Of a stretch of 50,148 nucleotides of DNA, positions 14,546-39,732 are shown in pieces. A program made the position numbers and the translations under genes. The stretch spans positions 1 through 50,148 of the IMG/VR virus record IMGVR_UViG_3300025030_001570. One strand, written 5' to 3'. The first letter of the stretch is position 1, and every line of letters begins with the position of its first letter. The notes beneath the pieces were generated by a model. That model did not search any database. It saw only the letters and a program-made list of their open reading frames with translations, and had not been told where the DNA came from. The DNA comes from a virus (taxonomy: Duplodnaviria; Caudoviricetes).

Positions 14546-14800
14546 CTAAGCCGTAGTTGTTGAGCTAGAGCTGGTGGTGGTGGAACTAGTTGAAGTAGAG
14601 GTGGAAGTAGTAGTTGCACCAGCAGTGGGTACATTGTTACCTTTTTGTGTGTAGCCTTTAACTTTCTGCACTCCTCCGATTCTGGAGAAGTCAGCATTGA
14701 TGGCTAGTGAGACTTCATTTTCCTGACCTAAAAACTTAGTGGTCTTTCGCTGTATACCACCCACAAAGCTGTTGATTGGAAACACTTTTTCTTCAGCCAT
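14546..14800 (-). CDS. Nozzle N-terminal fragment with a Ser/Thr tail
   Basis: SFVGG...ENE...NADF...GGVQKVKG resembles nozzle N-termini; ends in a 21-aa S/T tract. Confidence 0.6.
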   Translation of the reverse strand: MAEEKVFPINSFVGGIQRKTTKFLGQENEVSLAINADFSRIGGVQKVKGYTQKGNNVPTAGATTTSTSTSTSSTTTSSSSTTTA

Positions 14801-16015
14801 TTAAAAATAGTTCTCCCTTTGGGTATCGGAATATGCATCTTCACGGCTACCAAAAAGCTTAGCTCTGCCTCTGTGCCCCCGCCACTTGAGAAACTCTGCT
14901 TCACCAACCTCACGGCGTTGCAGTCTCTTTAACATCTCTATTCCCTGTAAGTATTGGTTGTGGTATGTCTCAGCAGTAGTAAAGTTTTCCTTACTCTTAT
15001 AATATTGAGAGAGAGAATAGTTAACTAATATCTCTGGCAAAGGTACTGGCGTGGTATCGCCGAAACTGTCAAGAGTAGCCATCTCTTTATAATACCTAAC
15101 GGTGAAAACAAGACTTGAGGTTTCTGGTACTGGATGAACGCCAAAGTATCCTTTAGCTGAATCGCCATCTGGCGGAAGCAGAGTGTAATACTTCAAGGTA
15201 TCATCATCAGGCATTGTAGCGTCATCAATTCTAAGCTGGTCAAACTCTGGCAAAGGAACAAAATGCAGTCGGTAATTTAATTGAGTGTCATCAAAAAGCA
15301 AGGCTTCCATTCTAGCAAAGTCGCTTGGCAAAGCGTAGTTATATTGGGAAGCAGTCGTTACTGTAGACGTAGTTTCTGTTAAAAGAAACCACCAGCGGTC
15401 ATAGTTAGCTTCTATTCTATCATGGCAATCGTTGAAGTATTTAATTATTTGCTCATCTGATAAGGCTTGATGGTCTGGTATCCCTGCAAACTGTCTAACC
15501 TCGGCTATCAAATAACCAACGCTGGTTCTACCTAAACCTGTGCCAGCCAGCTCATCTGAGTACGAAGAGTATGTGCCAGAAGCCGCATTGTAGAACCGCC
15601 ATTTATAGGTATCGGTTGAGATACCAGCCGCTACGCTAACGATAGTAAAACCATCTGGTGCATCAATATCTATATCAATTAAACCTTCAACAATAAGCGC
15701 ATAAGCACCAGCACTAGGTTTTCTTTCAAGAGAGATTTGATTATATAAACTACGAAAGATAGCAGTACCAGAAGAATGAGCAAACTTAGTCGTACCGCTT
15801 AAGGTTACTGTATTGTTGCCTGTAATAGAAGCAACTCTAACTAGTTCTGTTTGCTCCTCACCTGGGTTGCCTAAAGATAGATAATCATTGGCAGCTATAT
15901 CGTCATTGGAAGCTACAGTAAGAGAAGAAGCCGCTGCCGCAGAATTAGCAGTAAGGTTAGTAACCTCTTCACGAGAAACATCTGGATTTTTTATAGAAAG
16001 TCTAATACCAGCCAT
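14801..16015 (-). CDS. Head-tail adaptor / tail tubular A-like protein with extra N-terminal domain
   Basis: IIKYFND...WWFL...YALPSDF...GVHPVP...VRYY pattern; start moved to MAGIRL, after TGCTATACT. Confidence 0.65.
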   Translation of the reverse strand: MAGIRLSIKNPDVSREEVTNLTANSAAAASSLTVASNDDIAANDYLSLGNPGEEQTELVRVASITGNNTVTLSGTTKFAHSSGTAIFRSLYNQISLERKPSAGAYALIVEGLIDIDIDAPDGFTIVSVAAGISTDTYKWRFYNAASGTYSSYSDELAGTGLGRTSVGYLIAEVRQFAGIPDHQALSDEQIIKYFNDCHDRIEANYDRWWFLLTETTSTVTTASQYNYALPSDFARMEALLFDDTQLNYRLHFVPLPEFDQLRIDDATMPDDDTLKYYTLLPPDGDSAKGYFGVHPVPETSSLVFTVRYYKEMATLDSFGDTTPVPLPEILVNYSLSQYYKSKENFTTAETYHNQYLQGIEMLKRLQRREVGEAEFLKWRGHRGRAKLFGSREDAYSDTQRENYF

Positions 16016-16096
16016 GCTTAAAGTATAGCATAGTAACCCACCCTTACCCGTTGTCTTAAAATGCCTCAGCAAAAGAAGACAACACGCCGTAAAAGA

Positions 16097-16294
16097 TTAT
16101 TTCTTATCTACACCCGCTCTGAGGAATACACCAGCAAGACCAGCAATAATCACTTCTACTGCACTAACAACTTGCGGATCTACTTGGTCAACTACCACAC
16201 CGAACTGTTTACCCAGTTCAATAAGGACTAGAAGGGCAACAGCAAGATAGGTTCTATTGCCTTTACCTGGTACGGAACTAACTAAATTATTTAT
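16097..16294 (-). CDS. Holin-like two-TM protein, ATA start
   Basis: (I)NNLVSSVPGKGNRTYLAVALLVLIELGKQFGVVVDQVDPQVVSAVEVIIAGLAGVFLRAGVDKK; SD AGGGGGTGA 5 nt before ATA; next to the endolysin. Confidence 0.65.
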   Translation of the reverse strand: MNNLVSSVPGKGNRTYLAVALLVLIELGKQFGVVVDQVDPQVVSAVEVIIAGLAGVFLRAGVDKK

Positions 16295-16368
16295 TTAAAT
16301 CACCCCCTTTCTAAATAAGTTTAGGGCTTTCCCTGGAGAGTACTTGCGCTTTAAACGCCGATATTGTT

Positions 16369-17244
16369 TCATTGCTTTCCGAAAAGCTTTTGTCTTAGCC
16401 ATCTTGATAACTCATCTACCCAGTCTGGTGCTGGTTCTATTGGCTCGCTGTCAGTATAAATTAGGTCTGTAAGCCTTTGAATCGCCTTTAAACGAGTCTT
16501 TTGGTCAGAGTTAGGTTCCAGCCCCAATGCCGCATCTACTTGATGGCTTTCCTCTAGTAACTGAGCCAACATTCCTGTCTTTTCCAAGAAGTCTTTTTTA
16601 ACAAGCTCGTAAGTGTTTCTAACTTCCTTCAAGTCTGCGTCTATCGTCCCAACTTTTTTTTCCAACTCAGCAATCTGAGCCAGGGCGGTAATGAGTTTAG
16701 CGTTGGTCGCTCTATAATCTTTTAAGTACCGCACGGCACTAGCGTTCCATTGTTGGGCTGATAAAGTAACTGGTTTGCCGTTTTTACCTTTGAATAATCC
16801 TGATGTATCAGTAAACACGTCTAAGCCTCCGCTCTTGGTATTATAATACTTTTGGAAGTTTGGGAAAGTGGTAGGAGTTCCTTTGTATCTAAACTCGCAA
16901 TGGGCATGTGCTCCAGTACTGTTTCCAGAGTTTCCAGTGCTTGCAAATGGGTAGTTAACGACTCCAGTCCCTTGCGAGGCACTGCCACATAGGTGTGCGA
17001 TGAGGATTTCCCAAGACCCACCAACCCCAATTTTGATAAAATTTCCGTAATCTCTTGTGGTGAGAGTGCCCGTGTTTTTCCAATTCTGTGTACAACCATA
17101 CTTTTGGACTCGGCTAATAAGTTGATATGCCAGCGGAGCATACGCCTTCGTACCAATAGGGGTAGCCACATCATAGCCTTTGTGAGAGCTAGAGTAGCCT
17201 CGACTAATCTTATGAGTGCCTTTAAATAAAAGGATGGTAGCCAT
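16369..17244 (-). CDS. Endolysin, M23 peptidase with C-terminal coiled coil
   Basis: HKGYD, YGN, GNSGNSTGAHAH (HxxxD and HxH Zn ligands). Confidence 0.85.
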   Translation of the reverse strand: MATILLFKGTHKISRGYSSSHKGYDVATPIGTKAYAPLAYQLISRVQKYGCTQNWKNTGTLTTRDYGNFIKIGVGGSWEILIAHLCGSASQGTGVVNYPFASTGNSGNSTGAHAHCEFRYKGTPTTFPNFQKYYNTKSGGLDVFTDTSGLFKGKNGKPVTLSAQQWNASAVRYLKDYRATNAKLITALAQIAELEKKVGTIDADLKEVRNTYELVKKDFLEKTGMLAQLLEESHQVDAALGLEPNSDQKTRLKAIQRLTDLIYTDSEPIEPAPDWVDELSRWLRQKLFGKQ

Positions 17245-17245
17245 T

Positions 17246-17464: not shown

Positions 17465-17493
17465 TACTACATACCTCCTTGTATAATTAAATT

Positions 17494-18848: not shown

Positions 18849-18867
18849 CTTATATTTATTATAACAG

Positions 18868-19077: not shown

Positions 19078-21651
19078 TTAAGTATAACTTAATTCTTCTA
19101 TCACGTTTCCTATAGATATATCTGATTTTACAAAGCCGCCAAAGAACTCTCCGATCACATTACCTAGAGTCTCTAATATATAGAATGGCGTGGTCGTAGA
19201 GCTAGTACTAGTACTAGTTGAACTAGTAGATGTAGACGTTGAAGTTGATGTTGTACTACTGGTTGAGCTACTACTAGTCGCTGTTGTCGAAGTTGAGCTA
19301 CTGGAACTGCTACTGCTGGTGGTGCTACTTGTTGACGTGCTAGTGGATGTACTAGAACTGGTACTCGTGCTGGAACTAGTCGAGCTGGTAGTGGAACTGG
19401 TCGAAGAACTGGAGCTAGTACTGCTCGATGTTGACGTGCTAGTTGAAGTAGAACTAGATGTACTGGTGCTAGATGAACTGGTCACAGTAGTCGATGTTGA
19501 ACTGCTAGTAGAAGACGAGCTTGAAGTTGAAGAGCTGGTTGAACTAGAAGTAGCTGACGTAGACGAGCTAGAAGAACTAGTTGAAGACGACGTGGACGAA
19601 CTAGTTGAAGTTGAAGTTGAAGAAGTTACACCAGATGTAGTGGTGGAACTAGAGCTAGTTGAACTACTACTGGTTGAAGTACTTGTCGATGTAGAGCTGG
19701 ACGTACTAGAGCTGGTAGAACTACTGGTTGAGGAGCTGGTAACCGATGTACTAGTGCTGGTACTTGAAGACGTAGAGCTTGAGGTGGAGGAGCTAGTACT
19801 GGTTGACGAAGATGTTGAAGAAGATGTTGAGGTAGTACTACTGCTCGTTGAGCTGGATGTGGAACTACTGGTTGAAGAGCTAGTACTACTGCTAGTACTG
19901 CTAGATGTACTGCTGGATGATGTAGAAGTACTGCTAGACGTACTAGTAGAGGTGCTAGAACTTGTGGCTGAAGTAGATGTACTCGTACTCGAAGAAGTAG
20001 AAGATGAGGTAGAACTACTGGTACTTGTGCTAGACGAAGTAGATGTACTGGTGGATGTTGCGGAAGTTGAGGTTGAAGTGGAACTTGATGTACTACTGCT
20101 TGAACTTGATGAGGTACTGGTACTAGATGAAGTCGATGAACTAGTTGATGAAGATGTAGACGAACTCGTAACTGATGTACTTGTAGATGTTGATGAAGAA
20201 GTGCTACTACTGGTACTACTGGACGTGGACGTAGATGTAGAAGTCGAGCTGCTGGTACTCGAACTTGACGTAGAAGAACTTGTGCTAGTTGATGTAGACG
20301 ATGAACTACTAGTTGAAGTGGAGGTTGTCGTTGTTCCACCGAAAGTTACTCCCCACAAATCTGTTTTCAAAGATATAGATACTGATGGAGCTGTGGTTGT
20401 TGAGCTAGAACTTGTGCTACTTGAACTCGTGCTGGTTGAAGTCGAGGTAGAAGTAGACGAGCTAGTTGACGAGCTGGTACTGGAACTAGTAGATGTAGTG
20501 GTGGTGCTTGTTGAAGTGGTTGTTCCACCTGCTGTATAGGTGGCATAGATGGAGTATTTATTACTTAAATTACTTAAAGTGTTAGGATTTGTAGGACTTG
20601 TATAATTATTATCACTTTCATATTTAATTTCCCCACTTGATCCACTATCTCTATAAATTTGTGAAGCGTTTGTACCACCAACTACTACCCAGGGGACATA
20701 GTCAGTAGCATTAGAAACAGATGGTGGTACAGACATCGTGGAAACAAGCCAAGAAGGCCCACCACTTCCTTGTGCTAACGGGTCTACAATCGAACCAATA
20801 CCATTAGTTAAGATAGTCCAAGTTGTCGGCCCTGCATCCGTAACAAAACCTTTCATTCTTGAACCACCCGTATTATCGTGAGCATAAACAGATACACTAT
20901 CCACAGTACCTGCCGATGAAGTTGTATTATTAACAAAACTTCCCAAGGCGTTATTAGCAGGCCAATTTCCAGCAGCAGCTCCTGCTGTTGTGTATCCAAT
21001 TGTCAATCCCGCAGCGTGTCTTATTGGATAAACCGCTTTATCTAAGAACTCTTGAGGGATAGTAACTGAGAGTATGCCGTTTTCAATGTTTAATTCTCCC
21101 CAAACCCAACTTCCAACACTATCAATTATTTTCGGTCTAAAAATATGGCCGACTTTTCCACATTTGTATTCTTTTCCGCCAACATAATTGACTTTATTTT
21201 CGGAAGCATACACAGCATAAGAACCAACTACATTTTCTGGTCTAGTTGTACCTTGGTCTATTTCTTCTTGAGTTAATTCTGGTTGATAGAAGAAATCCAA
21301 TCCTTTGGTCTCTAAGGTAAATTCAATCTTATTAGTAAGGGGTTTTTCTTTGAGGATAACTTCAAACTCAAAAGCACCTTCGGGATGTTCTTCATTCGAG
21401 GGTATATTATAGAAGTGGGCTTCGGTCTTTTCTCCTTGCCAAAGGATTTTATCTGCTTCTGTTGTTATTGTCGGGGATACCTCATTAGTAATTAATCTAG
21501 CGGATAAATTGACTTCATTATCCCATCTTTGAATCTTGACTTGGGGGTAGAAGTCTGATTGTTTTGAGTCACCAATCTCAATCGCTATACGGTCTTTTGG
21601 ATTGTCTTTCGGTATTGCAAAATATGTACCCCCAGATTTGGTGTAAATCAT
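19078..21651 (-). CDS. Ser/Thr-rich (mucin-like) virion fibre protein, 857 aa
   Basis: Globular N-terminal domains followed by S/T tracts of about 43 and 380 aa. Confidence 0.8.
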   Translation of the reverse strand: MIYTKSGGTYFAIPKDNPKDRIAIEIGDSKQSDFYPQVKIQRWDNEVNLSARLITNEVSPTITTEADKILWQGEKTEAHFYNIPSNEEHPEGAFEFEVILKEKPLTNKIEFTLETKGLDFFYQPELTQEEIDQGTTRPENVVGSYAVYASENKVNYVGGKEYKCGKVGHIFRPKIIDSVGSWVWGELNIENGILSVTIPQEFLDKAVYPIRHAAGLTIGYTTAGAAAGNWPANNALGSFVNNTTSSAGTVDSVSVYAHDNTGGSRMKGFVTDAGPTTWTILTNGIGSIVDPLAQGSGGPSWLVSTMSVPPSVSNATDYVPWVVVGGTNASQIYRDSGSSGEIKYESDNNYTSPTNPNTLSNLSNKYSIYATYTAGGTTTSTSTTTTSTSSSTSSSTSSSTSTSTSTSTSSSSTSSSSTTTAPSVSISLKTDLWGVTFGGTTTTSTSTSSSSSTSTSTSSSTSSSSTSSSTSTSTSTSSSTSSSTSSSTSTSTSVTSSSTSSSTSSSTSSSTSTSSSSSSSTSSSTSTSTSATSTSTSTSSSTSTSSSTSSSTSSSTSTSTSATSSSTSTSTSSSTSTSSSSTSSSTSSSTSSSTSSSTSSSTSSSTTSTSSSTSSSTSTSSSTSSSTSSSTSTSTSVTSSSTSSSTSSSTSSSTSTSTSTSSSSTSSSSTTTSGVTSSTSTSTSSSTSSSTSSSSSSTSATSSSTSSSTSSSSSTSSSTSTTVTSSSSTSTSSSTSTSTSTSSSTSSSSSTSSTTSSTSSSTSTSSSTSTSTSTSSTTSSSSSSSSTSTTATSSSSTSSTTSTSTSTSTSSTSTSTSSTTTPFYILETLGNVIGEFFGGFVKSDISIGNVIEELSYT

Positions 21652-27194: not shown

Positions 27195-27555
27195 ATGGCC
27201 TCTCCTTTGTTTTATCGTAGATTTTAGTCATCGCCTCAATCAGTATCGAATCCTTCTTCATCTTAAATGAATGAGCAAAGTACGGTGGTATTTTAATCGG
27301 ACTCATTCTAAACATATCAAAAGTGGTCTTTTCCTTAGTCTTTACATCAATAATGGTTACCTCCGCCTCTCCTTTAGCCAGATAAAAATACTCGTCAGCG
27401 GCAGTACTGTAGTGGTTGCCAAGAATTGAATCCTCTTTAACATGAAGAACTTTAATGTTATGGATTGATATATTCAGATCACTAAAGAATTCTACTAAGT
27501 CTCTTCTTTTATCTGAACCAACAAAGGTTACATAAGAGAAATCAGTTTGTTCCAT
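27175..27555 (-). CDS. Cupin sugar isomerase/epimerase (FdtA/WxcM/RmlC-like)
   Basis: DKRR, GNHY...EYFYLAKG, IPPYFAHSF. Confidence 0.75.
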   Translation of the reverse strand: MEQTDFSYVTFVGSDKRRDLVEFFSDLNISIHNIKVLHVKEDSILGNHYSTAADEYFYLAKGEAEVTIIDVKTKEKTTFDMFRMSPIKIPPYFAHSFKMKKDSILIEAMTKIYDKTKERPFDTGKV

Positions 27556-30935: not shown

Positions 30936-31474
30936 TTGTTGTCGTAAACCTTATTGTGAGTCTTTTCAAGGATAGCTACTGCAAGTGGGTATTTTTCATT
31001 GAAGTTGGGTATCCTATGAAACTGAATCATTATCTCGTAAACACCCCTCAAAAGATTGTTCTCGTTTAGGTCTTCTAGTATTGCAAACTCCGCCCCTTCA
31101 CAATTTATTTCAAGTATGTCTACCTTCCTGTCCTTTAAGAAACCACTTAACTTAACAACATCAACCTCGATAGAATTATCCGATCTGGCCCATTCCCTGT
31201 AAAAAGAACTGCCTTCTTTGTTGACATAAAGAGTTCTTTTTCCTACCTCCTCCCCAAGTGCGTAAGGCAAAACTTTAACCCTCATGTTGGTCTCAAACCT
31301 TTTTCTGCAGACCTCGTAAAAGTCAGGCACTGGTTCAAAAATGATAATATAAGGATTCCATTGGTCAAGTAGATATTGGGAATAATCGCCTTTGTAGCCA
31401 CCGCAATCTACGACTAGAGAACCTGATCTTAAAGGTTTATGTAGTTTAACTATATCCTCAATTCTGGTTTTCAT
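30911..31474 (-). CDS. FkbM-family methyltransferase
   Basis: VVDCGGYKG, FEPVP, INCEGAEF, IQFH; likely start MKTRIED. Confidence 0.85.
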   Translation of the reverse strand: MKTRIEDIVKLHKPLRSGSLVVDCGGYKGDYSQYLLDQWNPYIIIFEPVPDFYEVCRKRFETNMRVKVLPYALGEEVGKRTLYVNKEGSSFYREWARSDNSIEVDVVKLSGFLKDRKVDILEINCEGAEFAILEDLNENNLLRGVYEIMIQFHRIPNFNEKYPLAVAILEKTHNKVYDNKWQLWRKK

Positions 31475-31475
31475 A

Positions 31476-32162
31476 TCACCTAAACCCCCTAAAATACTGG
31501 TGATATATCCTGTATTCTTCCCTAATCTTGCGGTAGGAAAAATAACCGTGCTTATCATAAAATTGTTGCTTGGCTATATCTGAAGTAGTGTGCCACTCTG
31601 ATATACTTTGATTGCTTTTATTTCTGGTTACACCAACCAAATGGGCAATAGTTATCTTTTTACTGGTTGCCGACTTCAATCCATTTAACTTCATTCTCCA
31701 AGCTAAATCTAAGTCATCACAGCTCCACAAAAACCTTTCATCAAATAACCCAATCTCCCTAAACAAGCTAGTTTTGAAGAAGCCACAGGGGCCGTAAAAA
31801 TGCTCCACTACTCCTTTTTCTTTATCTGTCAGTCGTACTGCATTTAAGAACTTTTCAAAATCTGCTGTCTCAACATAACCAGGAGACACCGCATTGTAGG
31901 TTTGCAGTTTCTCAACTACATCTTCCAACCAACCTTCTACAAACCATAGATCATCATTTAGCACTCCGACAGCAAAAGTTCCTCCTTTGTAAGCATCTAT
32001 TAGAATTGGGTTGATTGCGGAAGCTCCAAAGTTCTCTCCTTGTAGAATATGTAGCTTTAGGTTGGTGAATTTCTCGGTTGTTGGCTTAAATCCAGACAAG
32101 AACTCATCCAAGATGTTTTGGTGTTTAGACTGTACAATTACCTCAAGTTTGGTTTGGTACAT
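31476..32162 (-). CDS. Glycosyltransferase, GT2/GT-A
   Basis: LNDD, WLE, IGLFDERF...DDLDLAWR, HLVG; likely start MYQTK. Confidence 0.85.
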   Translation of the reverse strand: MYQTKLEVIVQSKHQNILDEFLSGFKPTTEKFTNLKLHILQGENFGASAINPILIDAYKGGTFAVGVLNDDLWFVEGWLEDVVEKLQTYNAVSPGYVETADFEKFLNAVRLTDKEKGVVEHFYGPCGFFKTSLFREIGLFDERFLWSCDDLDLAWRMKLNGLKSATSKKITIAHLVGVTRNKSNQSISEWHTTSDIAKQQFYDKHGYFSYRKIREEYRIYHQYFRGFR

Positions 32163-32823
32163 ATTTTCTATACTCCTCTGGAATCGGAATCCCACAATGC
32201 CCAGGTTCGTGGAATCGGTAATCGTGTTTCCAAATTCCAGTTCTCAACTCCCCCAAATGAAGAAATGGGTGTTTAACTCCCTGATATTTTCGTGAATTTA
32301 AACGGTGTTTATTGTAAGCAATCACCTCATGTCCATAATTACCTTCCCAAGTTAGTTCGGGCATATTTCTAAATAACCTAATCGGGTGAAAATTTCTATG
32401 GTGATATGGATCAAGAATATGATCTCCCTCTAAATGGTAGAAGTAAACAGAATAAACAAAACGATCTGGAGGTGGTTCTAGGTCAAGTATGTCTCGCATA
32501 GTCAAATCAGGGAAGATTTCATCATCATCAATTTTTAGTATCCATTCAGACTTAGTTTCAATTCTCAATTTATTTAGCAGTTCAGTTAAAGCTGTATTTT
32601 TCTCATTATCTATCCAAGTTCTACCTAAATGCTGAACATCAAATCGGTCATATTCTAAAAATGGGTAAGAAGTTTTAATCTCCTTTAGTATTTCCATTGT
32701 TCTATCAGTTGATCCTGTATCTATTACACGAGCTTCATTAATAAAAGGCAGAACAGCCTTTAAAACAAAAGGCAAGAGATATTCTGCCTCGTAAGTTAAT
32801 AAGTTAATTGCTAAGGATTGCAT
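32143..32823 (-). CDS. Glycosyltransferase, GT2/GT-A
   Basis: IDTGSTDRT, WILKIDDDE, RLFRN, HE. Confidence 0.85.
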   Translation of the reverse strand: MQSLAINLLTYEAEYLLPFVLKAVLPFINEARVIDTGSTDRTMEILKEIKTSYPFLEYDRFDVQHLGRTWIDNEKNTALTELLNKLRIETKSEWILKIDDDEIFPDLTMRDILDLEPPPDRFVYSVYFYHLEGDHILDPYHHRNFHPIRLFRNMPELTWEGNYGHEVIAYNKHRLNSRKYQGVKHPFLHLGELRTGIWKHDYRFHEPGHCGIPIPEEYRKYVPNQT

Positions 32824-33509
32824 ACTTCTCCATTGGTTAGGGTTTTGGATAAATCTGGGGTTTCTTTGAAGTTGTACCCCTGACCAAAGGCTGTATCAAC
32901 TGCTAATGAGTTTAGCTCCTTAGTAACTACCAAATAACCCTTATTGTAAGCAGCCTCAACCCACTTACTACCCGCTATTCGGTGGTTAATAAATGGGCCT
33001 ATCTCCTCAAAAGACTCTCGCTTCATCATCCATGAGTTAGAACCAGCCTTTAAGTTAAGCAGATAGTTTTCTCCCTTAAACTCTTGTACTCCTCGCCAGT
33101 ATCTTTCATTTCGATGCTGTCGATCTGTTCGTAGTGGCGTAACCAGATACTTCTTATCTGGAAAGGCATCTAAGATAGAGACGCACCATTGTACCCACCC
33201 AGGCTTATATTCAATATCATTATCGGAGATATGGATGTAGTCGCCTTGTGATAGTTTTATTGCTTGATTTCTGGCGTAGCCAAAATAGTAGTTCTTATTG
33301 TTTCTAACATAGTGGTGGATATGACCTGCGGCGGTCTGATCTAACAGCCAACGAGAGTCATCAATGTTATCGCCATTATCAACTACAATAATCTCACACG
33401 GAGTATCCTTTGTAGTTTCAATCAAAGAGTTAATACATCTACGTAGTGTCTCTGATCTAAATTCATTCTGTGCCCAATGAGTAACGATAATACTAATGGT
33501 AGATTTCAT
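32811..33509 (-). CDS. Glycosyltransferase, GT2/GT-A
   Basis: ISIIV, EIIVVDNG, GYARNQAI, SDND. Confidence 0.85.
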   Translation of the reverse strand: MKSTISIIVTHWAQNEFRSETLRRCINSLIETTKDTPCEIIVVDNGDNIDDSRWLLDQTAAGHIHHYVRNNKNYYFGYARNQAIKLSQGDYIHISDNDIEYKPGWVQWCVSILDAFPDKKYLVTPLRTDRQHRNERYWRGVQEFKGENYLLNLKAGSNSWMMKRESFEEIGPFINHRIAGSKWVEAAYNKGYLVVTKELNSLAVDTAFGQGYNFKETPDLSKTLTNGEVCNP

Positions 33510-34440
33510 TTAAAATCTTTTTTTGTGCCTCTAAATAAAGCCTTTTATCAAACTCGCCGTATTTCATCCAACCTTTTAGCCTATTTACTGGATAGACAGG
33601 CCCACCAACCTTCTTCTTTCTCCAAGCTATTTCGTGGGGTAAATACCTTTCGGCCACTTTTCTAAGCGTATATTTACCGTATTCAACATTGTGTATCTTG
33701 GCGGTAAGCGGTAAATCCAGCATATAGTTATCTATATCCATATTGTCTTGATACGGCCTCAAATTAGTAATACCAAAGTACTTAGCTATCCCATTACTCA
33801 TATCATCCATATCTGGTCTCATCAGTAATATATCTACCTTACATATTGCTCTCATTATATCTTCACCGCTATCAGCAAAAACCTTAATTATTTCCTCTTC
33901 TTTCTTGCCAGTCAATTTAGCATAGCTTTCTACTATACCAGGCAACACTTTATCTATAGCTGGCTGGTAATCATCAAAAGCCTCATAAGCAAATATGCTA
34001 TATAGGTAAGCCATTATAAGCTGACGGCCATAACCAAACATTGTCTCATCAGGGCCATCTCCCAATATTAACTTGGTAACTCCCATCCTTTTTAGATACT
34101 CATACATCACATAGAGAGGAAATATATTAAAATGGGGAATTGGTCTACCAATCGCTTTTACGGCAATCGAAAAATACTCATCAAACTTATCATGGTCTAA
34201 TTCAATGATATAATGTTTTAGATTCAGATGCTCTGCCACTAATGAAGAGTACTGAATCTCATTGTGCTTATCGCCCCCTGGCAATCTCACACTAACCACA
34301 AACGCTGGCTTGGTCAGAGCCGCTAAGAGGCTACTATCAACCCCACCAGATAAAGCAAGAGGTAGACCCTCATACTTTTTTGCTTCTTCTAATAACAAGC
34401 TTTCTAACTCATCTGCTAAAATATCAATTTCTTCCTTCAT
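33493..34440 (-). CDS. Asparagine-synthase-family synthetase domain only (probable sugar amidotransferase)
   Basis: LSGGVDSS PP-loop, GDGPDE..FGY, KYTLR...YLP..IAWRKK; no N-terminal Cys glutaminase domain. Confidence 0.8.
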   Translation of the reverse strand: MKEEIDILADELESLLLEEAKKYEGLPLALSGGVDSSLLAALTKPAFVVSVRLPGGDKHNEIQYSSLVAEHLNLKHYIIELDHDKFDEYFSIAVKAIGRPIPHFNIFPLYVMYEYLKRMGVTKLILGDGPDETMFGYGRQLIMAYLYSIFAYEAFDDYQPAIDKVLPGIVESYAKLTGKKEEEIIKVFADSGEDIMRAICKVDILLMRPDMDDMSNGIAKYFGITNLRPYQDNMDIDNYMLDLPLTAKIHNVEYGKYTLRKVAERYLPHEIAWRKKKVGGPVYPVNRLKGWMKYGEFDKRLYLEAQKKILNEIYH

Positions 34441-35194
34441 TCAACCTCCTTATAGTCTCCAGATATTCCGTCTGGCCGTTATACTTTTTTACACCATCAA
34501 TTAAATTATTCAAATCCTTAGGCAAACACGAACCACTAATCTTCCGATTACCTTCGTGGATAAAAGAATGATCCGACTCAATTCTTGGGTCTTCAGTTAG
34601 CATTGTTCTCAGGTCATCGTAGTCAATATGATAGATGTTGCAAATATCATATACTTCATTAAGAAAGGTAAGTTTAGAATAAAAATAAGCGTTCTCTACC
34701 AACTTTAACAGCTCTGCTGTTCTTGCCTGGGTTTGAAATACTTTAACATTGTAAAGAAGAGTCTCCCAAAGGTCAGCTACTTCACTAGTATCGATTGGAG
34801 TCCCACCAACTACCGCCCAATGAATCCTACTTAGATCATTAAATGGGTGATTGGGGAAATCACTAGGGCCGTATTCAGGCATAAATACAATCCGTTTATT
34901 AAACTTCTCCTTAGCCCAATCGGTAAACCCTACCCAAACAGTCGATCGGACAATATTTATCTTTGCCTTTGATTTACTTATTATTTCCTCAACGATTGAG
35001 GTATCACAACTACCATCATCGTTGCTTGGGGTTGGAACACAAAGGAAGAGATAATCAGCCTCTAAGGCTTCTGTAGACTTCATGCCCTTTGGTGGGTCAT
35101 AAACAAACGAGGAACGTATAATATATTTTAAAGCCTTACCAACTTTTCCAAAACCAGCAATTCCTATGTTGTGTGTTTTTTTAGATACTCCCAT
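34424..35194 (-). CDS. UDP-glucose/GDP-mannose 6-dehydrogenase family (short form)
   Basis: GFGKVG, CVPTP, RSTV, AELLK..EN, DPRI, GSCLPKD. Confidence 0.85.
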   Translation of the reverse strand: MGVSKKTHNIGIAGFGKVGKALKYIIRSSFVYDPPKGMKSTEALEADYLFLCVPTPSNDDGSCDTSIVEEIISKSKAKINIVRSTVWVGFTDWAKEKFNKRIVFMPEYGPSDFPNHPFNDLSRIHWAVVGGTPIDTSEVADLWETLLYNVKVFQTQARTAELLKLVENAYFYSKLTFLNEVYDICNIYHIDYDDLRTMLTEDPRIESDHSFIHEGNRKISGSCLPKDLNNLIDGVKKYNGQTEYLETIRRLNEGRN

Positions 35195-36045
35195 ACTTGT
35201 TTAATCCCGTCTTCAAATTTAACCTCTGCCTCCCAACCAAGAAGACTCTTAGCTTTTTTAGACTTTATAGCCTCCTTCATTGTCTGACCTGATCGTTGTG
35301 CTATATGAGTTATCGGTGAATCTGACTGAGTTGCTTCCTTAATCATCCTTGCCATATCATTAGCCGAGATACTCTCTTCAGTAGATAAATTTATATCAAG
35401 TTTAGTTAATTCAGGCTTGCTGACTAACCTAGATACAGCTTCAACTAAATCTGATATATGGGTTAATGTTCTTGTTTGGTTTCCGCTACCATGAACAGTT
35501 ATTGGCTTACCGCTCATCGCTTGGCGGAAAAAGACCTTAACCCCCAAAACCTCTCGCATACCTGGTTCTCCATAGGTAGTGGGAAATCTCATATTCACAT
35601 ATTTGAGGTCATGGGTAAAGTGGAACATCTTAATAATCAACTCTCCGATGTACTTTGAATAGGCATAAATCTCGTTAGGATTTGGCGGAGATTCTTCGGT
35701 TGTCTCTGAAAACTTCTCAAAATCCTGATCTCCATAGACACAGCAAGTTGAGGCATAAAGCAACCTTTTTTTATGTTTAGCACAAAACTCGGCCACATTC
35801 CAAGTACCCTCGATATTAGTCGTAAAAGTCTCTTTAGGATGGTCTTTGGCGTAATTCAGATCAGCAATAGCCGCCAAATGAATTACTTGATCCGCTATCT
35901 TTATATTCTGATCTAAGGCTTCTCTATCCGATAAATCATTACCGACTAAACGATCAAAAACTATAGTCTCATACCCTTCTTTAAGAAGTTTCGCTAAAAT
36001 GTTCCTCCCAATAAACCCCATACCACCTGTCAAAAGTATCTTCAC
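35164..36045 (-). CDS. NAD-dependent nucleotide-sugar epimerase/dehydratase
   Basis: TGGMGFIG, HLAA, YAYSK (YxxxK), G.G.QTR. Confidence 0.9.
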   Translation of the reverse strand: MKILLTGGMGFIGRNILAKLLKEGYETIVFDRLVGNDLSDREALDQNIKIADQVIHLAAIADLNYAKDHPKETFTTNIEGTWNVAEFCAKHKKRLLYASTCCVYGDQDFEKFSETTEESPPNPNEIYAYSKYIGELIIKMFHFTHDLKYVNMRFPTTYGEPGMREVLGVKVFFRQAMSGKPITVHGSGNQTRTLTHISDLVEAVSRLVSKPELTKLDINLSTEESISANDMARMIKEATQSDSPITHIAQRSGQTMKEAIKSKKAKSLLGWEAEVKFEDGIKQVWEYLKKHTT

Positions 36046-36707
36046 ATCACACCACCTTCCAATCTAGCCAATAAAGGCGTATCGGTTGTATTTACATCTA
36101 CTGTTTCAGAAGCCTCAAAGCTCTTTAGTAAAGGCACACTAAATAGAGTTACTGCTTGAAAATGTTTAGTTAACACTTCATAGAATTCTCCTGCTGGTGC
36201 TTCGTAGCAATGCTGTTCATTTCTTGGATGGTCGTCCCGAATGTCTGGTGAGTTACGATTCGGTGTAGAGATATAACCAATAGTACCCTCCTTGAAGAAT
36301 CTCTTGATATTGTTCAGAGCATCATCCCACCTCTCTCTTGGTAAATGTTCTATTACCTCTAACATCACCACAATATCGAAAGTGGCTATTGGGCGGTTAG
36401 GCGGGTTGAGGACATCAAAAACATCGAATTTAAGTCGAGGGGATTCAAACAAGGCTTTGCCGAAATCAATCAATTCCTGCTCCACATCAACGGCCCATAC
36501 TCCCAAAGATCGATGAGAAAGAATATTACTGCCCACCCCGAAACTACTGCCAATATCGACAAAGGCCTTGCCCTGATGTTTACTGACCAATGCTTCGTAA
36601 ATCTTCCTCTGCTCATTGGGAATAACGTATTTATGGGTTTCCCACCTTCTCATTGACCAGGTTATACCAGGATATGTTTTAGGTTCGTTCTGTTGGTATT
36701 CGCCCAT
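36042..36707 (-). CDS. Class I SAM-dependent methyltransferase
   Basis: VDIGSSFG, EVIEH, ISTPN. Confidence 0.85.
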   Translation of the reverse strand: MGEYQQNEPKTYPGITWSMRRWETHKYVIPNEQRKIYEALVSKHQGKAFVDIGSSFGVGSNILSHRSLGVWAVDVEQELIDFGKALFESPRLKFDVFDVLNPPNRPIATFDIVVMLEVIEHLPRERWDDALNNIKRFFKEGTIGYISTPNRNSPDIRDDHPRNEQHCYEAPAGEFYEVLTKHFQAVTLFSVPLLKSFEASETVDVNTTDTPLLARLEGGVM

Positions 36708-37986
36708 TTATAACTCCTTCTATAGCTGGAATAAACTGATTCTTAGCTATCCAATCGTAATTAAACTTCTTCCTAACGGTAGTAAAAGCTCTCATTACTC
36801 TATTACTATTCAAATCCGATAATATGATCTTGGCAATATCCTTAAAATAACCTTCTTCTCCATCATCGCCATATTGAGTTTCATTCACTAAGCGACTTCT
36901 AAACCTAAAGTTAAAAGAACCTTCAGGGCCTAAGAAGTCTATCATTGGCTTAAAGTCTTCATTCAAGATCAGCAAATTCTTGGTAGCTGCGGCTTCTAAT
37001 AAAATTAGCGGTGCGTTTTCGGAGAAACTAGGAAAGATAAACAGATTAGCAATCTGGAATAGTTCCACAACTACTTGATGCGATACTCCCTGTTCATACT
37101 TTGGTAGGTCGTAAAATGAGGTAAAGATTACTTCTGTTCGATCAAGGTTTTTCTGGGCGGCCAGCTGTAAGAAATTCTCAATGGTTTCCTTTTCCCTTTG
37201 GGCATTGGCATGAGCATTAGGAATTATCAATTTAACCTTTTGCCCTAGCTCTTTGAGATAACCCATCACGGAGATTACTTTTCTCACGGCCTTACCATCA
37301 TCTCCCATTCTGGTTGAACTGACAGGGTAAACACAGATAATATCCGCCTCAAATAAGCCATAAGCGTCAATTAGTTCTCTAGTTAATGGGGATAGATTAT
37401 ACATTTCCCTTAAATCCATAGGATTAAAAACTACTTTTACGTCTTTAGGCCATATACCATACATTTCTCCTGCCGCCACCTGTTCTGAGTAATTCATATA
37501 AATTAGTTTAGAGTTTTGGGGATGGGGTAGACCGAATAATTCATTCCACGGATCGGATAAATTAGCCCTTTGACTCGGAGCAGAGTGTATCTGATGAAGC
37601 ATAGGCAAGGTTTCCAGCCGTGCCTGTTTGAGTGCCACATTGTAGATTAAATAAGAGTTAATGAAACATATATCGTGGGTAATAAGACAATCTAGATCTG
37701 CAAATTCTTTCTCAAATACTTCTTTGGTTTTATCAACATTGGCTTGAAAATCATCTGGTACTGGCGAGCCCGTCTGTCCATAAGGTTCCAAAACCCATTG
37801 AGGTACAACTGCCCGCAATTCTACCCCCTCTGGAACTTTGTCCTGATCCATAAAGTTAGTCAGACCAAAAAGGATGGGCTGATAGCCATTCCTTTTAAGC
37901 ATCTGCAACTGTTGGAGAACCACAGTTACCAATGAATAAGCTGGATCTAAATTAGAAAATGTACTTAATATACCTATTTTTTTCAT
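36679..37986 (-). CDS. Glycosyltransferase, GT4/GT-B
   Basis: FIFPSFSENAPLILLEAA (EX7E), VFNP. Confidence 0.85.
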   Translation of the reverse strand: MKKIGILSTFSNLDPAYSLVTVVLQQLQMLKRNGYQPILFGLTNFMDQDKVPEGVELRAVVPQWVLEPYGQTGSPVPDDFQANVDKTKEVFEKEFADLDCLITHDICFINSYLIYNVALKQARLETLPMLHQIHSAPSQRANLSDPWNELFGLPHPQNSKLIYMNYSEQVAAGEMYGIWPKDVKVVFNPMDLREMYNLSPLTRELIDAYGLFEADIICVYPVSSTRMGDDGKAVRKVISVMGYLKELGQKVKLIIPNAHANAQREKETIENFLQLAAQKNLDRTEVIFTSFYDLPKYEQGVSHQVVVELFQIANLFIFPSFSENAPLILLEAAATKNLLILNEDFKPMIDFLGPEGSFNFRFRSRLVNETQYGDDGEEGYFKDIAKIILSDLNSNRVMRAFTTVRKKFNYDWIAKNQFIPAIEGVINGRIPTERT

Positions 37987-38697: not shown

Positions 38698-38957
38698 TAG
38701 CCTCCTTTCTGGGTTTCAATAGCCCTAAATATCCTACCTTTTAATGATCTCATATGGTAGTAATATTTCTTAGGTTCTACCGCAATCTTATCTGTATTAA
38801 ACATATCAACTAATTCCCCGATCTTGGAATCATTAACGAAAATGAAATTGTACCTGCCTGGAATATCTGTAGGCTGAATATCTTTCAATTTGAAATCTAA
38901 AGTTTCGAGGGTAGAAGCTAAGATTAAATCTGCGGTAACGAAATTTTCATTTTTCAT
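38697..38957 (-). CDS. Small phage protein, DUF5659-like (recalled, unverified)
   Basis: TADLILASTL...FIF...VEPKKYY...LKGRI pattern. Confidence 0.5.
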   Translation of the reverse strand: MKNENFVTADLILASTLETLDFKLKDIQPTDIPGRYNFIFVNDSKIGELVDMFNTDKIAVEPKKYYYHMRSLKGRIFRAIETQKGG

Positions 38958-38975
38958 ACTTAATTATCTCTTTTA

Positions 38976-39377
38976 CTATCTCTGAACTACTAAGTAACCA
39001 TCAATAGTACCAACACCAATGACGGTCTCAATTCTAGCCCGTGCGTATTTGGCGGGGAGACCTACAGTAGTATTAGTGTTCCCATCCAAAGCATCACTTG
39101 TAACCACCTGATAGGCTGTAGAAGCCGCCGACGTGGTTACACTATCCACCTTTAACCATGGGCCAGAAGAAGTCATTGCGACCTCAAGCTGAACTACCCC
39201 TGCATTAACACCTACTCCAGTTTCCACAAAAAGAGAAACTGATCGGGCGTTTCTAATATCAATAGCGGGAGAAGTTGTTTCATCAGTAGAGGCGTTATCA
39301 AAGACTTTATGGGCTTCCCACTCTCTTTGAACGGAACCTGGTTGAGATTCGGAACTAGTAACGTCTACATCGGCCAT
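38976..39377 (-). CDS. Probable virion structural protein (beta-sandwich)
   Basis: Beta-rich, VQLEV...W...KYARAR; in the head module. Confidence 0.55.
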   Translation of the reverse strand: MADVDVTSSESQPGSVQREWEAHKVFDNASTDETTSPAIDIRNARSVSLFVETGVGVNAGVVQLEVAMTSSGPWLKVDSVTTSAASTAYQVVTSDALDGNTNTTVGLPAKYARARIETVIGVGTIDGYLVVQR

Positions 39378-39408
39378 ATATTTAGTATAACATAACTGCT
39401 AACTTGCT

Positions 39409-39732
39409 TTAACCTGTGGTTGTGCTGGAAGATGAAGTGGATGAACTACTTGTACTTGAAGATGTAGAAGTAGAACTAGAAGTACTAGATGAAGTACTAG
39501 ATGACGAAGATGTAGTAGAACTTGTAGTAGTAGTAACCAAAGAACTATATTTCCACCCAGAGGTTGTACCATCTGTGTTTATATAAAGACGGTTGTTAGT
39601 TGTATCAAGAAATAGATCACCAGTTTCAGTATCATCACTGGAAGTAATGAAGGTGTTAGGATGTCCCGCACCGCTTCGGATGTTTCCTGCTAAACTGCTG
39701 TAATGTGTATCTTGTCTATCAAATCCTGCCAT
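39409..39732 (-). CDS. Capsid decoration-like protein with a 40-aa Ser/Thr tail
   Basis: GAGHP...GDLFLDTTNNRLYIN..GT...W domain followed by an S/T tract. Confidence 0.7.
   Translation of the reverse strand: MAGFDRQDTHYSSLAGNIRSGAGHPNTFITSSDDTETGDLFLDTTNNRLYINTDGTTSGWKYSSLVTTTTSSTTSSSSSTSSSTSSSTSTSSSTSSSSTSSSSTTTG

Follow-up and report, generated by a model that had tools for sequence, protein, structure and literature searches.

A predicted O-glycosylation system for the virion proteins of an uncultured SU10-like podophage

What use might a phage have for late proteins with long, nearly pure Ser/Thr tracts, encoded on the same strand as a block of genes related to those of glycan synthesis? 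The question is raised by a stretch of DNA of 50,148 nt, which is referred to in its entirety as the window. A direct terminal repeat at both ends (1..149, with a second copy at 50000-50148; the copies, of repeat family D7, are 99% identical) indicates that the window spans an entire genome, 49,999 bp in length. The source virus, which is uncultured, is an SU10-like podophage, as judged by its large terminase and SU10-type portal (43258..46944, plus strand; PF17289 and PF23899). Its tail module starts with an SU10-type adaptor (14801..16072, minus strand; PF24175, E 6e-18), and its major capsid protein is HK97-like (40029..40949, minus strand; PF25209, E 1.5e-18; phrog_371/133) and, by sequence, lacks an S/T tail.

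The initial annotation of this DNA took the tracts to be acceptors and the neighbouring enzymes to be the machinery that glycosylates the virion. Homology to enzymes of CAZy family GT27 and a co-occurrence survey, both described below, lend support to this proposal, as far as sequence comparison can. The annotation had also put the combined share of enzymes and tracts at close to a third of the genome, a fair estimate: the enzyme block takes up 11,974 nt and the tracts take up 3,285 nt, or 24.0% and 6.6% of 49,999, which add up to 30.5%.

Ser/Thr tracts and the proteins that carry them

Tracts were defined by a Ser/Thr content of at least 80% in 15-aa windows. Four late proteins, all encoded by continuous ORFs on the minus strand, contain a total of 1,095 tract residues, 96% of them Ser or Thr (678 S and 376 T, the 41 others being mostly A, V, and G). 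The same four had been named initially, with tract lengths (about 590, 43 + 380, 40, and 21 aa) close to those found here (587, 53 + 386, 44, and 25 aa).

Two of the proteins are fibres. The first, of 1296 aa (21648..25538), has one tract of 587 aa (aa 570-1156; window 22071-23831), preceded by a globular N-terminal part of 569 aa, whose first ~360 aa match phrog_14065, and followed by a C-terminal domain of 140 aa that is 64% identical to the corresponding domain of an S/T protein in another viral contig (L014). The second, of 857 aa (19078..21651), has tracts of 53 aa (aa 373-425; window 20377-20535) and 386 aa (aa 436-821; window 19189-20346), set between an N-terminal part of 372 aa and a C-terminal peptide of 36 aa. 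If densely glycosylated and stretched out as single chains, the stalks would measure about 150 and 95 nm.

The other two are small. The 107-aa protein (39409..39732), a candidate for a small glycosylated fibril, has a globular N-terminal portion of ~62 aa and a tail of 44 aa (aa 63-106; window 39415-39546). Three homologues were found among six candidates, both of the complete ones with S/T tails, and tailed orthologues lie upstream of the GT4-like gene described below in most of 42 viral contigs. A structure atlas gave a weak match of this protein to a fibre trimerisation-like fold. Beside it is encoded what appears by eye to be a paralogue, an 88-aa protein (39740..40006, minus strand) with no S/T tail, whose orthologue is conserved in one relative (G001). 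The 84-aa protein (14546..14800), its gene situated between those for the adaptor and a 499-aa tail protein, consists of an N-terminal 58 aa and a tail of 25 aa (aa 59-83; window 14552-14626), and all four of its orthologues have S/T tails (24-35 aa). From gene position, the 107-aa protein may belong to the head and the 84-aa protein to the nozzle. Tracts are thus carried by varied globular domains and differ in length, their composition being what is kept.

All six Ser codons and all four Thr codons occur in the tracts, with a usage similar to that elsewhere in the late genes, and Tandem Repeats Finder detects only weak, short arrays. The Ser/Thr composition is therefore maintained at the level of protein, and the tracts stem neither from a DNA repeat nor from faulty assembly. 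Comparable tracts are present in independent metagenome contigs.

The enzyme block

Between the capsid and fibre genes, within the structural operon and on its strand (minus), are 16 ORFs (26013-37986), which overlap by 4-83 nt at 15 of 15 junctions. The initial annotation had described a same-strand block of mostly overlapping genes, but its count of 15 genes was one short, its own list summing to 16. By the Kyte-Doolittle scale, no block enzyme (0/16) contains a 19-aa window hydrophobic enough to score 1.6, and Pfam and NCBIfam searches found no flippase, polymerase, or lipid-carrier transferase families among them; all are predicted to be soluble, with no membrane protein in the set.

The first gene of the block encodes a GT4-like glycosyltransferase of GT-B fold (36679..37986; PF00534 below cut-off; phrog_2170). 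It is the most conserved enzyme of the clade, with 344 homologues at E ≤ 1e-5. Its AF2 model (pLDDT 89.7) has MshA, BshA, and sucrose-phosphate synthase as top Foldseek matches, and the fold, as modelled, is a generic GT-B. The last gene of the block (26013..27194) is taken up in the next section. Three more glycosyltransferases belong to GT2: one of GT-A type at 32811..33509 (PF00535, E 6.6e-21; best PDB sequence match chondroitin synthase, E 1.5e-9), one at 32143..32823 (PF00535, E 1.2e-5, above cut-off), and one at 29150..29803 (PF00535), the best named relatives of which, by weak matches, are SunS-type peptide glycosyltransferases (TIGR04195 SunS, E 5.7e-7, 28.7 bits against a cut-off of 350; PDB 7msk, 7msp, and 7msn, E 0.003-0.018). 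Six glycosyltransferases had been claimed. Four (26013, 29150, 32143, and 32811) stand as GT-A/GT2 enzymes above the Pfam cut-off and one (36679) as GT-B/GT4-like by fold, but the sixth, a 239-aa protein (31476..32195), is only a possible glycosyltransferase, with a weak PHROG match (phrog_22332, E 2.8e-4) and no match in Pfam or PDB.

Similarly, three of the four methyltransferases are solid: two SAM-dependent enzymes, at 36042..36707 (PF13649/PF08241; conserved beside the GT4-like gene in relatives, 37-42% by tblastn) and 29800..30429 (PF13847, E 7e-16), and one of the FkbM family at 30911..31558 (PF05050; TIGR01444 above cut-off). The fourth (30426..30935) is a probable methyltransferase by a match below cut-off (PF13489, E 1.4e-4), conserved at 45-50% identity to relatives.

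Gmd, GDP-mannose 4,6-dehydratase (28179..29153; PF16363, E 1.6e-122), passes the NCBIfam equivalog cut-off (TIGR01472, 419.5 bits against 415), and the SDR-type NDP-sugar epimerase/dehydratase (35164..36045; PF01370, E 6e-49) is equally solid. The nucleotide-sugar dehydrogenase (34424..35194; PF00984 and PF03721; TIGR03026, E 3e-33, below cut-off) is present as a short form of 256 aa. The AsnB-like amidotransferase (33493..34440; PF00733, E 7e-28), a candidate for amidation of a uronic acid, retains the synthetase domain but not the glutaminase domain; a full-length form of 515 aa occurs in a relative (L010). The proposed SGNH enzyme (27542..28201) and cupin (27175..27555) are recovered as weak matches, below the curated cut-offs. 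The former resembles SGNH/GDSL hydrolases or acyltransferases (PF13472, Lipase_GDSL_2; PF00657, Lipase_GDSL), and the latter is a small soluble, WbuC-like protein (TIGR04366, E 3e-4) with no TM helix. PF14667 scored above its Pfam cut-off with 27175..27555 (29.6 against 28.7 bits), yet this family was set aside.

A GT27-like enzyme and its occurrence with tracts

Polypeptide GalNAc-transferases (ppGalNAc-Ts; CAZy GT27) start mucin O-glycosylation in animals. The 393-aa product of 26013..27194 (minus strand), a gene with a single 142-aa ORF between it and the fibre genes, is, by profile and modelled fold, a homologue of their catalytic domain, a resemblance missed in the initial annotation. With the single sequence, a PDB search matches GalNAc-T10 and GalNAc-T7 only, at E about 1e-3. 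With a profile of 48 members of the GT27-like family, 15 distinct ppGalNAc-T sequences rank first (E 1.3e-38 to 7.6e-33), followed by Toxoplasma GalNAc-T3 (9e-30), chondroitin synthase (7e-28), and ordinary GT2 enzymes (1e-19 or weaker). The DxH motif of the family, its GGxE stretch, and a later His are all paired in the alignment with those of the animal enzymes, and among close family members D112, H114, E214, and H238 do not vary. The AF2 model (pLDDT 91.8) gives a consistent result: all 31 of the Foldseek matches listed (ranks 1-46, with further chains omitted) are ppGalNAc-Ts, with E from 1.4e-16 to 2.3e-13 and identity of 16-20%. Where animal enzymes carry a ricin-type lectin domain, the phage enzyme has a C-terminal stretch of ~130 aa.

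In six of seven other viral contigs that hold a homologue of the gene, an ORF with an S/T tract begins downstream, no more than ~50 nt away or just past the junction of a circular contig. One contig with a homologue (L017) has no tract in the 13.4 kb available, where terminase is the only structural gene. In Tunturi_4, a cultured phage of Tunturiibacter, a distant GT27-like enzyme (24% identity) is encoded between terminase and portal, and the first 52 kb of the phage genome contain no dense S/T tract, so the GT27-like fold is not always paired with mucin-like tracts. A literature search found no paper describing such a pairing.

The initial annotation had proposed that phage contigs be searched for co-occurrence of tracts and glycosyltransferases. 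Viral contigs were chosen by the GT4-like gene and then screened for S/T-tract ORFs, which were found in 42 of 42 (within 10 kb in 40 and elsewhere in the contig in 2), although the contigs share synteny and may represent one clade, so that the counts are not independent and common descent may account for them. The occurrence of tracts and glycosyltransferases independently of one another, which would speak against a connection, was not seen in going from the GT4-like gene to the tracts. The GT27-like gene was found in 16 of the 42 loci. Where 4.9 kb or more is available downstream of the GT4-like gene (15 contigs), it was recovered every time, in the locus in 13 and elsewhere in the contig in 2. 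Among control loci, which are mostly bacterial Gmd loci unmatched to the viral set, 1 of 33 (287,528 nt) has a tract, in a frame antisense to an annotated gene. Three relatives that share only the capsid have no S/T tract in the loci examined and no glycosyltransferase family among the scanned ORFs of at least 110 aa downstream of the capsid gene.

Possible targets of the enzymes, and known systems

The phage's own enzymes probably carry out, in the cytoplasm of the host, O-glycosylation of accessory proteins of the virion, to judge from the sequence. From this point I infer the role of the tracts as substrate, the identity of the sugars, the order of steps, the site of the small proteins on the particle, and the purpose of the coat. 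Late in infection, the structural operon would yield the two long fibres along with the pair of small, tailed proteins, with the Ser/Thr tracts as acceptors. The soluble GT27-like enzyme (26013-27194) would begin each chain, using a nucleotide sugar to add the first residue to Ser/Thr hydroxyls in the way that animal ppGalNAc-Ts act on mucins, and the GT4-like and GT2 enzymes would extend the chain. Gmd, the SDR enzyme, the sugar dehydrogenase, and the AsnB-like enzyme may supply unusual donors (for instance, a 6-deoxyhexose, a uronic acid, or the corresponding amide), and the methyltransferases and SGNH enzyme may decorate the glycan. The particle would thereby acquire a glycan fuzz, and its stalks would be stiff, hydrated, and resistant to proteases.

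Mixed use of the block, which is rather unlikely, would leave the tracts to the GT27-like enzyme, possibly joined by the GT4-like enzyme and by one or two of the GT2s, and would have the variable genes (Gmd, cupin, SGNH, and some methyltransferases and glycosyltransferases) remodel the surface polysaccharide or LPS of the host. The minimal module that recurs in relatives (a small S/T protein, the GT4-like enzyme, a methyltransferase, and the GT27-like enzyme) fits such a division. So does the history of Gmd, which is not universal in the clade (tblastn at E ≤ 1e-5 finds it in 0 of 7 viral loci, L012-L018) and whose closest cellular relative, 67% identical, lies on a MAG contig, consistent with recent uptake. 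Variable sugar-supply genes are expected as well, however, if the virion glycan differs between phages; moreover, the 16 genes form a single late operon, each overlapping the next, and no membrane or export component was found.

Phage sugar-biosynthesis genes, Gmd-type included, are often read as modifiers of the host surface, and one may ask if the entire block acts exclusively on the host or on other targets outside the virion (such as the cell envelope, DNA, or a small molecule), the tracts being unrelated to it and either unmodified flexible spacers or modified by the host. I consider this improbable. The link between enzymes and tracts is drawn from sequence, and Tunturi_4 has its distant homologue without tracts, as noted, but the nearest relatives of known structure to the key enzyme modify Ser/Thr in mucin-type tracts, its gene adjoins tract-bearing genes in six of seven other contigs, and the co-occurrence is without exception in the 42 contigs. 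Near-pure stretches of 386-587 aa far exceed ordinary linkers, and no lipid-carrier or export genes were found, nor a hydroxymethylase, thymidylate-synthase-like enzyme, or DNA polymerase that might prepare DNA for glycosylation. Finally, it is very unlikely that the tracts are otherwise modified (phosphorylated or cross-linked) or are themselves an adhesive surface, accompanied by glycosyltransferases through clade inheritance with no functional link, since, even if shared synteny would permit a merely historical linkage, no kinase or other modifying family was found in the late region, and the linkage outlasts rearrangement (in relative G002 the glycosyltransferase genes are beside lysis genes, >8 kb from the nearest tract gene).

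Glycosylation of virion accessory proteins, the preferred reading, has several partial precedents. Giant viruses have glycosylated surface fibrils made with virus-encoded sugar pathways. They resemble the phage, at the level of general description rather than of enzymes or acceptors, in having a virus-encoded cluster for nucleotide-sugar synthesis and glycosyl transfer and decorated surface fibrils, and differ in being viruses of eukaryotic hosts. The serine-rich repeat adhesins of streptococci and staphylococci have long Ser-rich tracts, glycosylated in the cytoplasm by soluble GtfA/GtfB encoded alongside, and the phage shares the very long tracts and the soluble glycosyltransferases beside the genes of the presumed substrates. 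The adhesins, however, use an accessory Sec system, no genes for which were found in the phage, and their initiating enzyme is GT-B, in contrast to the GT-A/GT27-like candidate initiator here; the GT4-like enzyme of the phage has a generic GT-B fold, with no GtfA among the Foldseek matches listed. Glycocin enzymes of the SunS type are, like the GT2 at 29150-29803 that weakly matches them (by NCBIfam and PDB titles), soluble GT2s, and they glycosylate peptides, but their substrates are short bacteriocin peptides.

In mycobacteriophages (Che8, Corndog, and Myrna), the phage's own glycosyltransferases, encoded beside an O-methyltransferase, are reported to modify capsid and tail-tube proteins, the acceptors being the C-termini of the subunits (PMC11600133, PMC12619734, citing Freeman et al. 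2023). The arrangement of glycosyltransferase genes next to methyltransferase genes is similar, as is the targeting of structural proteins, shown there and proposed here. In contrast, the present phage has a capsid protein without a tract and no tail tube, the tracts proposed as acceptors, up to 587 aa long, belong to accessory fibres and small proteins, and its block is predicted also to make its own nucleotide sugars. A tblastn search with three of its glycosyltransferases against 50,697 phage records matched no mycobacteriophage; the GT27-like enzyme gave one distant match and the other two none.

The eukaryotic ppGalNAc-Ts share with the phage enzyme a homologous catalytic domain (profile E 1e-38, and fold), including the DxH, the third His, and the Gal/GalNAc-T motif, and the phage's presumed acceptors, as long, nearly pure Ser/Thr tracts, recall the tandem repeats of mucins, although the phage tracts lack proline, a typical residue in the PTS repeats of mucins. 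The animal enzymes have a signal/membrane anchor and the lectin domain, whereas the phage enzyme has neither, its C-terminal stretch being unrelated. They work in the Golgi, and the phage enzyme would work in the bacterial cytoplasm, where, if the preferred reading is true, it would be part of a self-contained system of protein O-glycosylation devoted to the phage's own particle.

The genome and its Ser/Thr tracts

The first 149 bases of the window recur at positions 50000-50148 with 99% identity. This terminal repeat, taken together with the virus record, shows the window to be complete: a terminally redundant genome of 49,999 bp. Pfam families found in it include a large terminase, an HK97-like capsid protein, an M23 peptidase, and a portal and adaptor of the SU10 type (PF23899, E 2e-19, and PF24175, E 6e-18, both better than the cut-off), which mark the phage as an SU10-like podophage. 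The late genes lie on the minus strand, between roughly 42.4 and 8.0 kb. Among 50,697 phage records, the capsid protein matches at no better than 36% identity, and no deposited phage is close.

Three features of the genome lie apart from the matter of glycosylation. A small-terminase-like gene (48280-48756; PF03592, E 1.6e-8) is encoded on the minus strand, 3.5 kb away from the large terminase gene, which is on the plus strand. An HNH endonuclease gene (17494-17928, plus strand) sits within the late operon but on the opposite strand, between a holin-like gene and a gene for a 290-aa fibre-like protein; in relatives, HNH genes appear at other positions, within the glycan block. Finally, a pentapeptide-repeat protein (3621-4256, plus strand), encoded by a 15-nt tandem array (3761-3991), lies directly upstream of the gene for a C5 cytosine DNA methylase (4381-5400, plus strand; PF00145, E 1.4e-91), and the two are possibly an anti-restriction pair.

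The initial annotation had drawn attention to four late proteins with nearly pure Ser/Thr tracts. The tracts are real. By a fixed criterion (at least 80% Ser plus Thr in 15-residue windows) they cover 587 residues of the 1296-aa fibre (22071-23831), 53 and 386 residues of the 857-aa fibre (19189-20535), 44 residues of a 107-aa protein (39415-39546), and 25 residues of an 84-aa protein (14552-14626), all encoded on the minus strand. Their 1,095 residues consist of 678 Ser, 376 Thr, and 41 others. All six Ser codons and all four Thr codons are in use, in proportions like those of other late genes, and Tandem Repeats Finder detects only short, weak arrays. The mixed codon use and the weakness of the arrays therefore indicate that the composition is kept at the level of protein. 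The same observations, along with the occurrence of tracts in independent contigs, rule out a DNA tandem repeat or an assembly artefact as their origin.

Every tract and sub-tract closes with the same small motif, in which a single Thr stands between two runs of Ser and the second run is followed by three Thr and a residue of Ala, Gly, or Pro. Relatives keep this motif too, and it could mark a module boundary or act as a signal that stops glycosylation or sets its register. A frequent layout of tract proteins is a globular N-terminal part, the Ser/Thr tract, and a C-terminal peptide of 16-36 amino acids rich in hydrophobic residues, as encoded in the window at 19078-19188 and in the Ser/Thr ORFs of six loci from other contigs (L012, L014, L015, L016, L018, and L088). 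The peptide might serve as the protein's anchor on the particle, leaving the globular part to point outward.

The N-terminal domain of the 1296-aa fibre, used as a query, found no matches in viral contigs. About 360 amino acids of it are common (30-34% identity) to the so-called minor tail proteins of Streptomyces siphophages, which lack a Ser/Thr tract and whose genes lie between those for capsid and head-tail adaptor. One protein with this domain, gp13 of Streptomyces phage Hiyaa (L092, 4001-7333), lacks a Ser/Thr tract, and the annotation of the 9-kb stretch around its gene lists a methyltransferase but no glycosyltransferase; this single case is compatible with a link between tract and glycosyltransferase. 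Only three homologues of the 107-aa protein were found, and a profile search with the 84-aa family returned only the four contigs already known, with no members that lack the tail.

The enzyme block and its GT27-like enzyme

Between the capsid and fibre genes, at 26013-37986 (minus strand), lies a block of 16 ORFs in which all 15 junctions overlap. Together with the tracts it takes up 30.5% of the genome. Gmd, whose score clears the equivalog cut-off of NCBIfam, is a solid assignment. So are four glycosyltransferases of the GT-A/GT2 type, three methyltransferases, a synthetase domain of the AsnB type, an SDR sugar epimerase/dehydratase, and a nucleotide-sugar dehydrogenase of short form. A GT-B enzyme falls below the Pfam cut-off and is confirmed by its fold. 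An SGNH enzyme and a cupin are weak assignments. Six glycosyltransferases and four methyltransferases had been listed initially; five and three of them stand, while the sixth glycosyltransferase (at 31476) and the fourth methyltransferase are weak matches, so that the late operon contains five to six of the former and three to four of the latter. Scans for promoters and terminators gave sites no more numerous than in shuffled sequence.

The enzyme of greatest interest is the product of the last gene of the block (26013-27194), a GT2-family protein of 393 aa separated from the fibre genes by a single 142-aa ORF. A search of PDB sequences with the protein alone found only human GalNAc-T10 and GalNAc-T7 (E about 1e-3). 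Among 1.84 billion representative proteins, it has 325 relatives at E ≤ 1e-3 and only 7 at E ≤ 1e-30. A profile was made from 48 relatives, all of 263-427 aa, so that no canonical animal enzyme was included. Against the PDB, this profile gave polypeptide GalNAc-transferases (ppGalNAc-Ts) as the top 15 distinct sequences (E 1.3e-38 to 7.6e-33), followed by Toxoplasma GalNAc-T3 (9e-30), chondroitin synthase (7e-28), which trails the ppGalNAc-Ts by about 10 orders of magnitude, and ordinary GT2 enzymes (1e-19 or weaker).

The residues expected of such an enzyme are in place. D112 and H114 of the DxH motif are invariant in a narrow alignment of the close family, and in the broader alignment of 48 members H114 is invariant and D112 nearly so; the motif aligns with the DSH of GalNAc-T10 and PGANT9. 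A GGxE stretch (210-214, with E214) and H238 are likewise invariant in the narrow alignment, H238 nearly so in the broader one, and these align with the WGGE stretch and the His of the animal enzymes (the Gal/GalNAc-T motif and third His). I take the aligned DxH and His residues to be metal ligands. The AlphaFold model (pLDDT 91.8) has a GT-A fold, and all 31 of the Foldseek matches listed (within ranks 1-46, setting aside further chains of the same entries) are ppGalNAc-Ts. Pfam finds no ricin or lectin family in the protein, and the PDB alignments stop at about profile position 260; the C-terminal 130 or so residues, which stand in place of the lectin domain, are helical in the model, with a small beta unit. 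There is no type II membrane anchor, the highest 19-residue hydropathy being 0.98. The protein is thus homologous to the catalytic domain of GT27 enzymes without being a canonical member of the family. Judged from sequence and model, it is a candidate for the enzyme that initiates glycosylation.

As a single query, the GT27-like protein found no matches in bacterial genomes, and a wide alignment of its family contains no stretch of sufficient conservation for scanning contigs. Three close relatives (P0007, P0010, and P0013) are 667-709 aa long, with the match split into N- and C-terminal parts around an insert of about 300 aa that could be an intein or some other inserted domain.

The GT4-like enzyme (36679-37986) belongs to a family of 344 clusters at E ≤ 1e-5, the best 120 of which show 46-100% identity (E 2e-114 or better), their longest contigs being mostly no more than 51 kb, with one of 136 kb. 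Its predicted fold is that of a generic retaining GT-B enzyme (MshA, BshA, sucrose-phosphate synthase), which says nothing about the acceptor, and a fold so generic to GT4 does not support a GtfA-like role. The best named relatives of the GT2 enzyme at 29150 are peptide glycosyltransferases of the SunS type, a weak match. Relatives of Gmd are spread over many phyla and point to no host. The closest cellular Gmd (67% identical) is encoded on a 7.2-kb contig from a MAG labelled Coxiella sp. (L019; MGOZ01000025.1), where it is followed by cupin and SDR genes that also match those of the window. This contig may come from the lineage that acted as donor, or it may be a piece of phage that was binned with the MAG.

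Co-occurrence with tracts and alternative targets

If the enzymes act on the tracts, then the two should be found together in other phages, a check suggested in the initial annotation. In a close relative whose capsid protein is 82% identical, the block is kept, Ser/Thr tails are present on the orthologues of the 107-aa and 84-aa proteins, and the fibre tract is about 517 aa long. The narrow GT27-like alignment brings in 7 other viral contigs (32-74% identity). An ORF with a Ser/Thr tract directly follows the GT27-like gene in 6 of them, and the globular parts of these proteins differ from contig to contig. The seventh (L017) is a 13.4-kb fragment with terminase as its only structural gene, and it does not bear on the pairing either way; about 1 kb downstream of its GT27-like gene are opposite-strand genes (3510-4972, minus strand) that by eye seem to encode an enzyme of the ThiF/E1 type and a JAB-type peptidase.

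The GT4-like alignment gives a larger sample. At least one frame with a Ser/Thr tract is present in 40 of the 42 loci fetched, usually as one to three small tailed proteins encoded just upstream of the GT4-like gene. Elsewhere in their contigs, one of the two exceptions has four tract-bearing ORFs 8-20 kb away, while in the other a tract protein of 731 aa is encoded next to the GT27-like gene, and so tracts accompany the GT4-like enzyme in all 42 contigs. The GT27-like gene itself is present in 16 of the 42 loci. Where at least 4.9 kb of downstream sequence is available (15 loci, a count that leaves aside three with 3.7-4.8 kb), it is in the locus in 13 cases and elsewhere in the contig in 2. 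The recurring minimal unit is a small Ser/Thr protein, the GT4-like enzyme, a methyltransferase, and the GT27-like enzyme.

Control loci, which were not matched to the GT4-like contigs, yielded a tract in 1 of 33 (287,528 nt), in a frame opposite an annotated gene. Three relatives in capsid only (34-36% identity) have no tract in the loci fetched and no glycosyltransferase family among the scanned ORFs of at least 110 aa downstream of the capsid gene. The co-occurrence was scored in one direction, contigs being chosen by enzyme and then searched for tracts, and the counts are not independent because gene order is common to the contigs, which may belong to a single clade.

The only relative of the GT27-like enzyme in a deposited phage is gp2 of Tunturiibacter phage Tunturi_4 (L046, 1567-2565; 24% identity, E 1e-16). 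It has the DxH motif, and its gene lies between those for the large terminase and portal. There is no dense Ser/Thr tract in the first 52 kb of the roughly 88-kb Tunturi_4 genome, which makes it, over that stretch, a counter-example to the pairing of such enzymes with tracts. Tunturi_4 is a cultured soil phage and offers a tractable means to study the function of GT27-like enzymes in phages.

What else might the block modify? Its use could be split between the virion and other targets, and in favor of this possibility, a tblastn search with Gmd came up empty in all seven of the viral loci examined; the co-occurrence of tracts with the GT4-like and GT27-like genes speaks for the virion. Hydropathy shows no membrane helix in any of the 16 block enzymes, and Pfam and NCBIfam families reveal no flippase, polymerase, lipid-carrier transferase, or export gene; the block is therefore not a self-contained pathway for surface polysaccharide. 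Glycosylation of DNA can be set aside: enzymes that would prepare DNA for it (a hydroxymethylase, a thymidylate-synthase-like enzyme, a DNA polymerase) were looked for and not found, and apart from the cytosine C5 methylase no enzyme that modifies DNA came to light.

The reading best supported is the one first proposed, a phage-encoded mucin-like system for glycosylating the virion, with the GT27-like enzyme and the co-occurrence as its evidence. From sequences and predicted structures, I consider it probable that the block and the tracts constitute such a system.

Implications and comparison with known systems

A fuller picture can be drawn, tentatively, and it is rather doubtful that all of it will hold. 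In the cytoplasm of bacteria, a widespread clade of uncultured SU10-like podophages would make glycoproteins that are truly of the mucin type: a soluble enzyme of the GT27 type that has no lectin domain would start O-glycans on tracts hundreds of residues long, and a phage pathway would add methylated chains containing deoxy sugars and uronates, giving "hairy" virions whose bottle-brush stalks would measure about 100-150 nm. If so, a mucin-initiating family thought to be eukaryotic would have a place in the world of bacterial viruses, and the direction in which the family travelled would become a question.

Other consequences would follow from the main reading, if it is right. How mucin-type O-glycosylation arose is a question on which it would bear. 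The enzyme, soluble and compact at 393 aa, would be a polypeptide O-glycosyltransferase that comes with its own encoded acceptors, useful for producing mucin-like materials in bacteria. Sequence would also be read differently for what it says about the surface chemistry of environmental phages and the length of their fibres.

Phages that glycosylate their own particles with enzymes they encode are so far known only among some actinobacteriophages, where the sites are short and C-terminal, on capsid and tail-tube proteins. The system proposed here would be new in scale (tracts of up to 587 residues, with 30% of the genome given to enzymes and tracts), in enzyme (a relative of the animal mucin-initiating transferases), and in acceptors (accessory fibres in place of the subunits of capsid and tail tube). 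A full-text search, judged by titles and the openings of abstracts, found no published description of a GT27 enzyme or polypeptide GalNAc-transferase in a phage, nor of mucin-like O-glycosylated virions, and the word "phage" is absent from a review of viral O-glycosylation (PMC11139210).

Unlike the loci of streptococcal serine-rich repeat proteins, in which a GtfA-GtfB pair and the accessory Sec genes SecA2/SecY2 accompany the substrate, the late region of the window contains no Sec family, and there is no GtfA among the Foldseek matches listed. The window's enzyme resembles GT27 enzymes in its DxH, its Gal/GalNAc-T motif, its third His, and in having GT27s as its closest solved relatives. 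It differs from them in lacking a ricin-type lectin domain and a type II anchor, and as a phage protein it is made in the bacterial cytoplasm.

The nearest parallel in phages is with mycobacteriophages, whose own glycosyltransferases, encoded next to an O-methyltransferase, modify capsid and tail-tube proteins, according to passages in three papers (PMC11600133, PMC12619734, PMC13313380) that cite Freeman et al. (2023). In a similar way, going by the relevant passage of the first of these (PMC11600133), the glycosyltransferases and methyltransferases of the window's phage sit among structural genes. Three of the window's glycosyltransferases, compared by tblastn with a phage collection, found no match in mycobacteriophages, and so, at the sensitivity of tblastn, no homology to the glycosyltransferases of Che8, Corndog, and Myrna. 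The mycobacteriophage acceptors are the C-termini of capsid and tail-tube proteins, whereas the capsid protein of the window has no tract, a podophage has no tail tube, and the putative acceptors are accessory proteins. The window's phage and the mycobacteriophages thus differ in enzyme families, in acceptors, and in scale.
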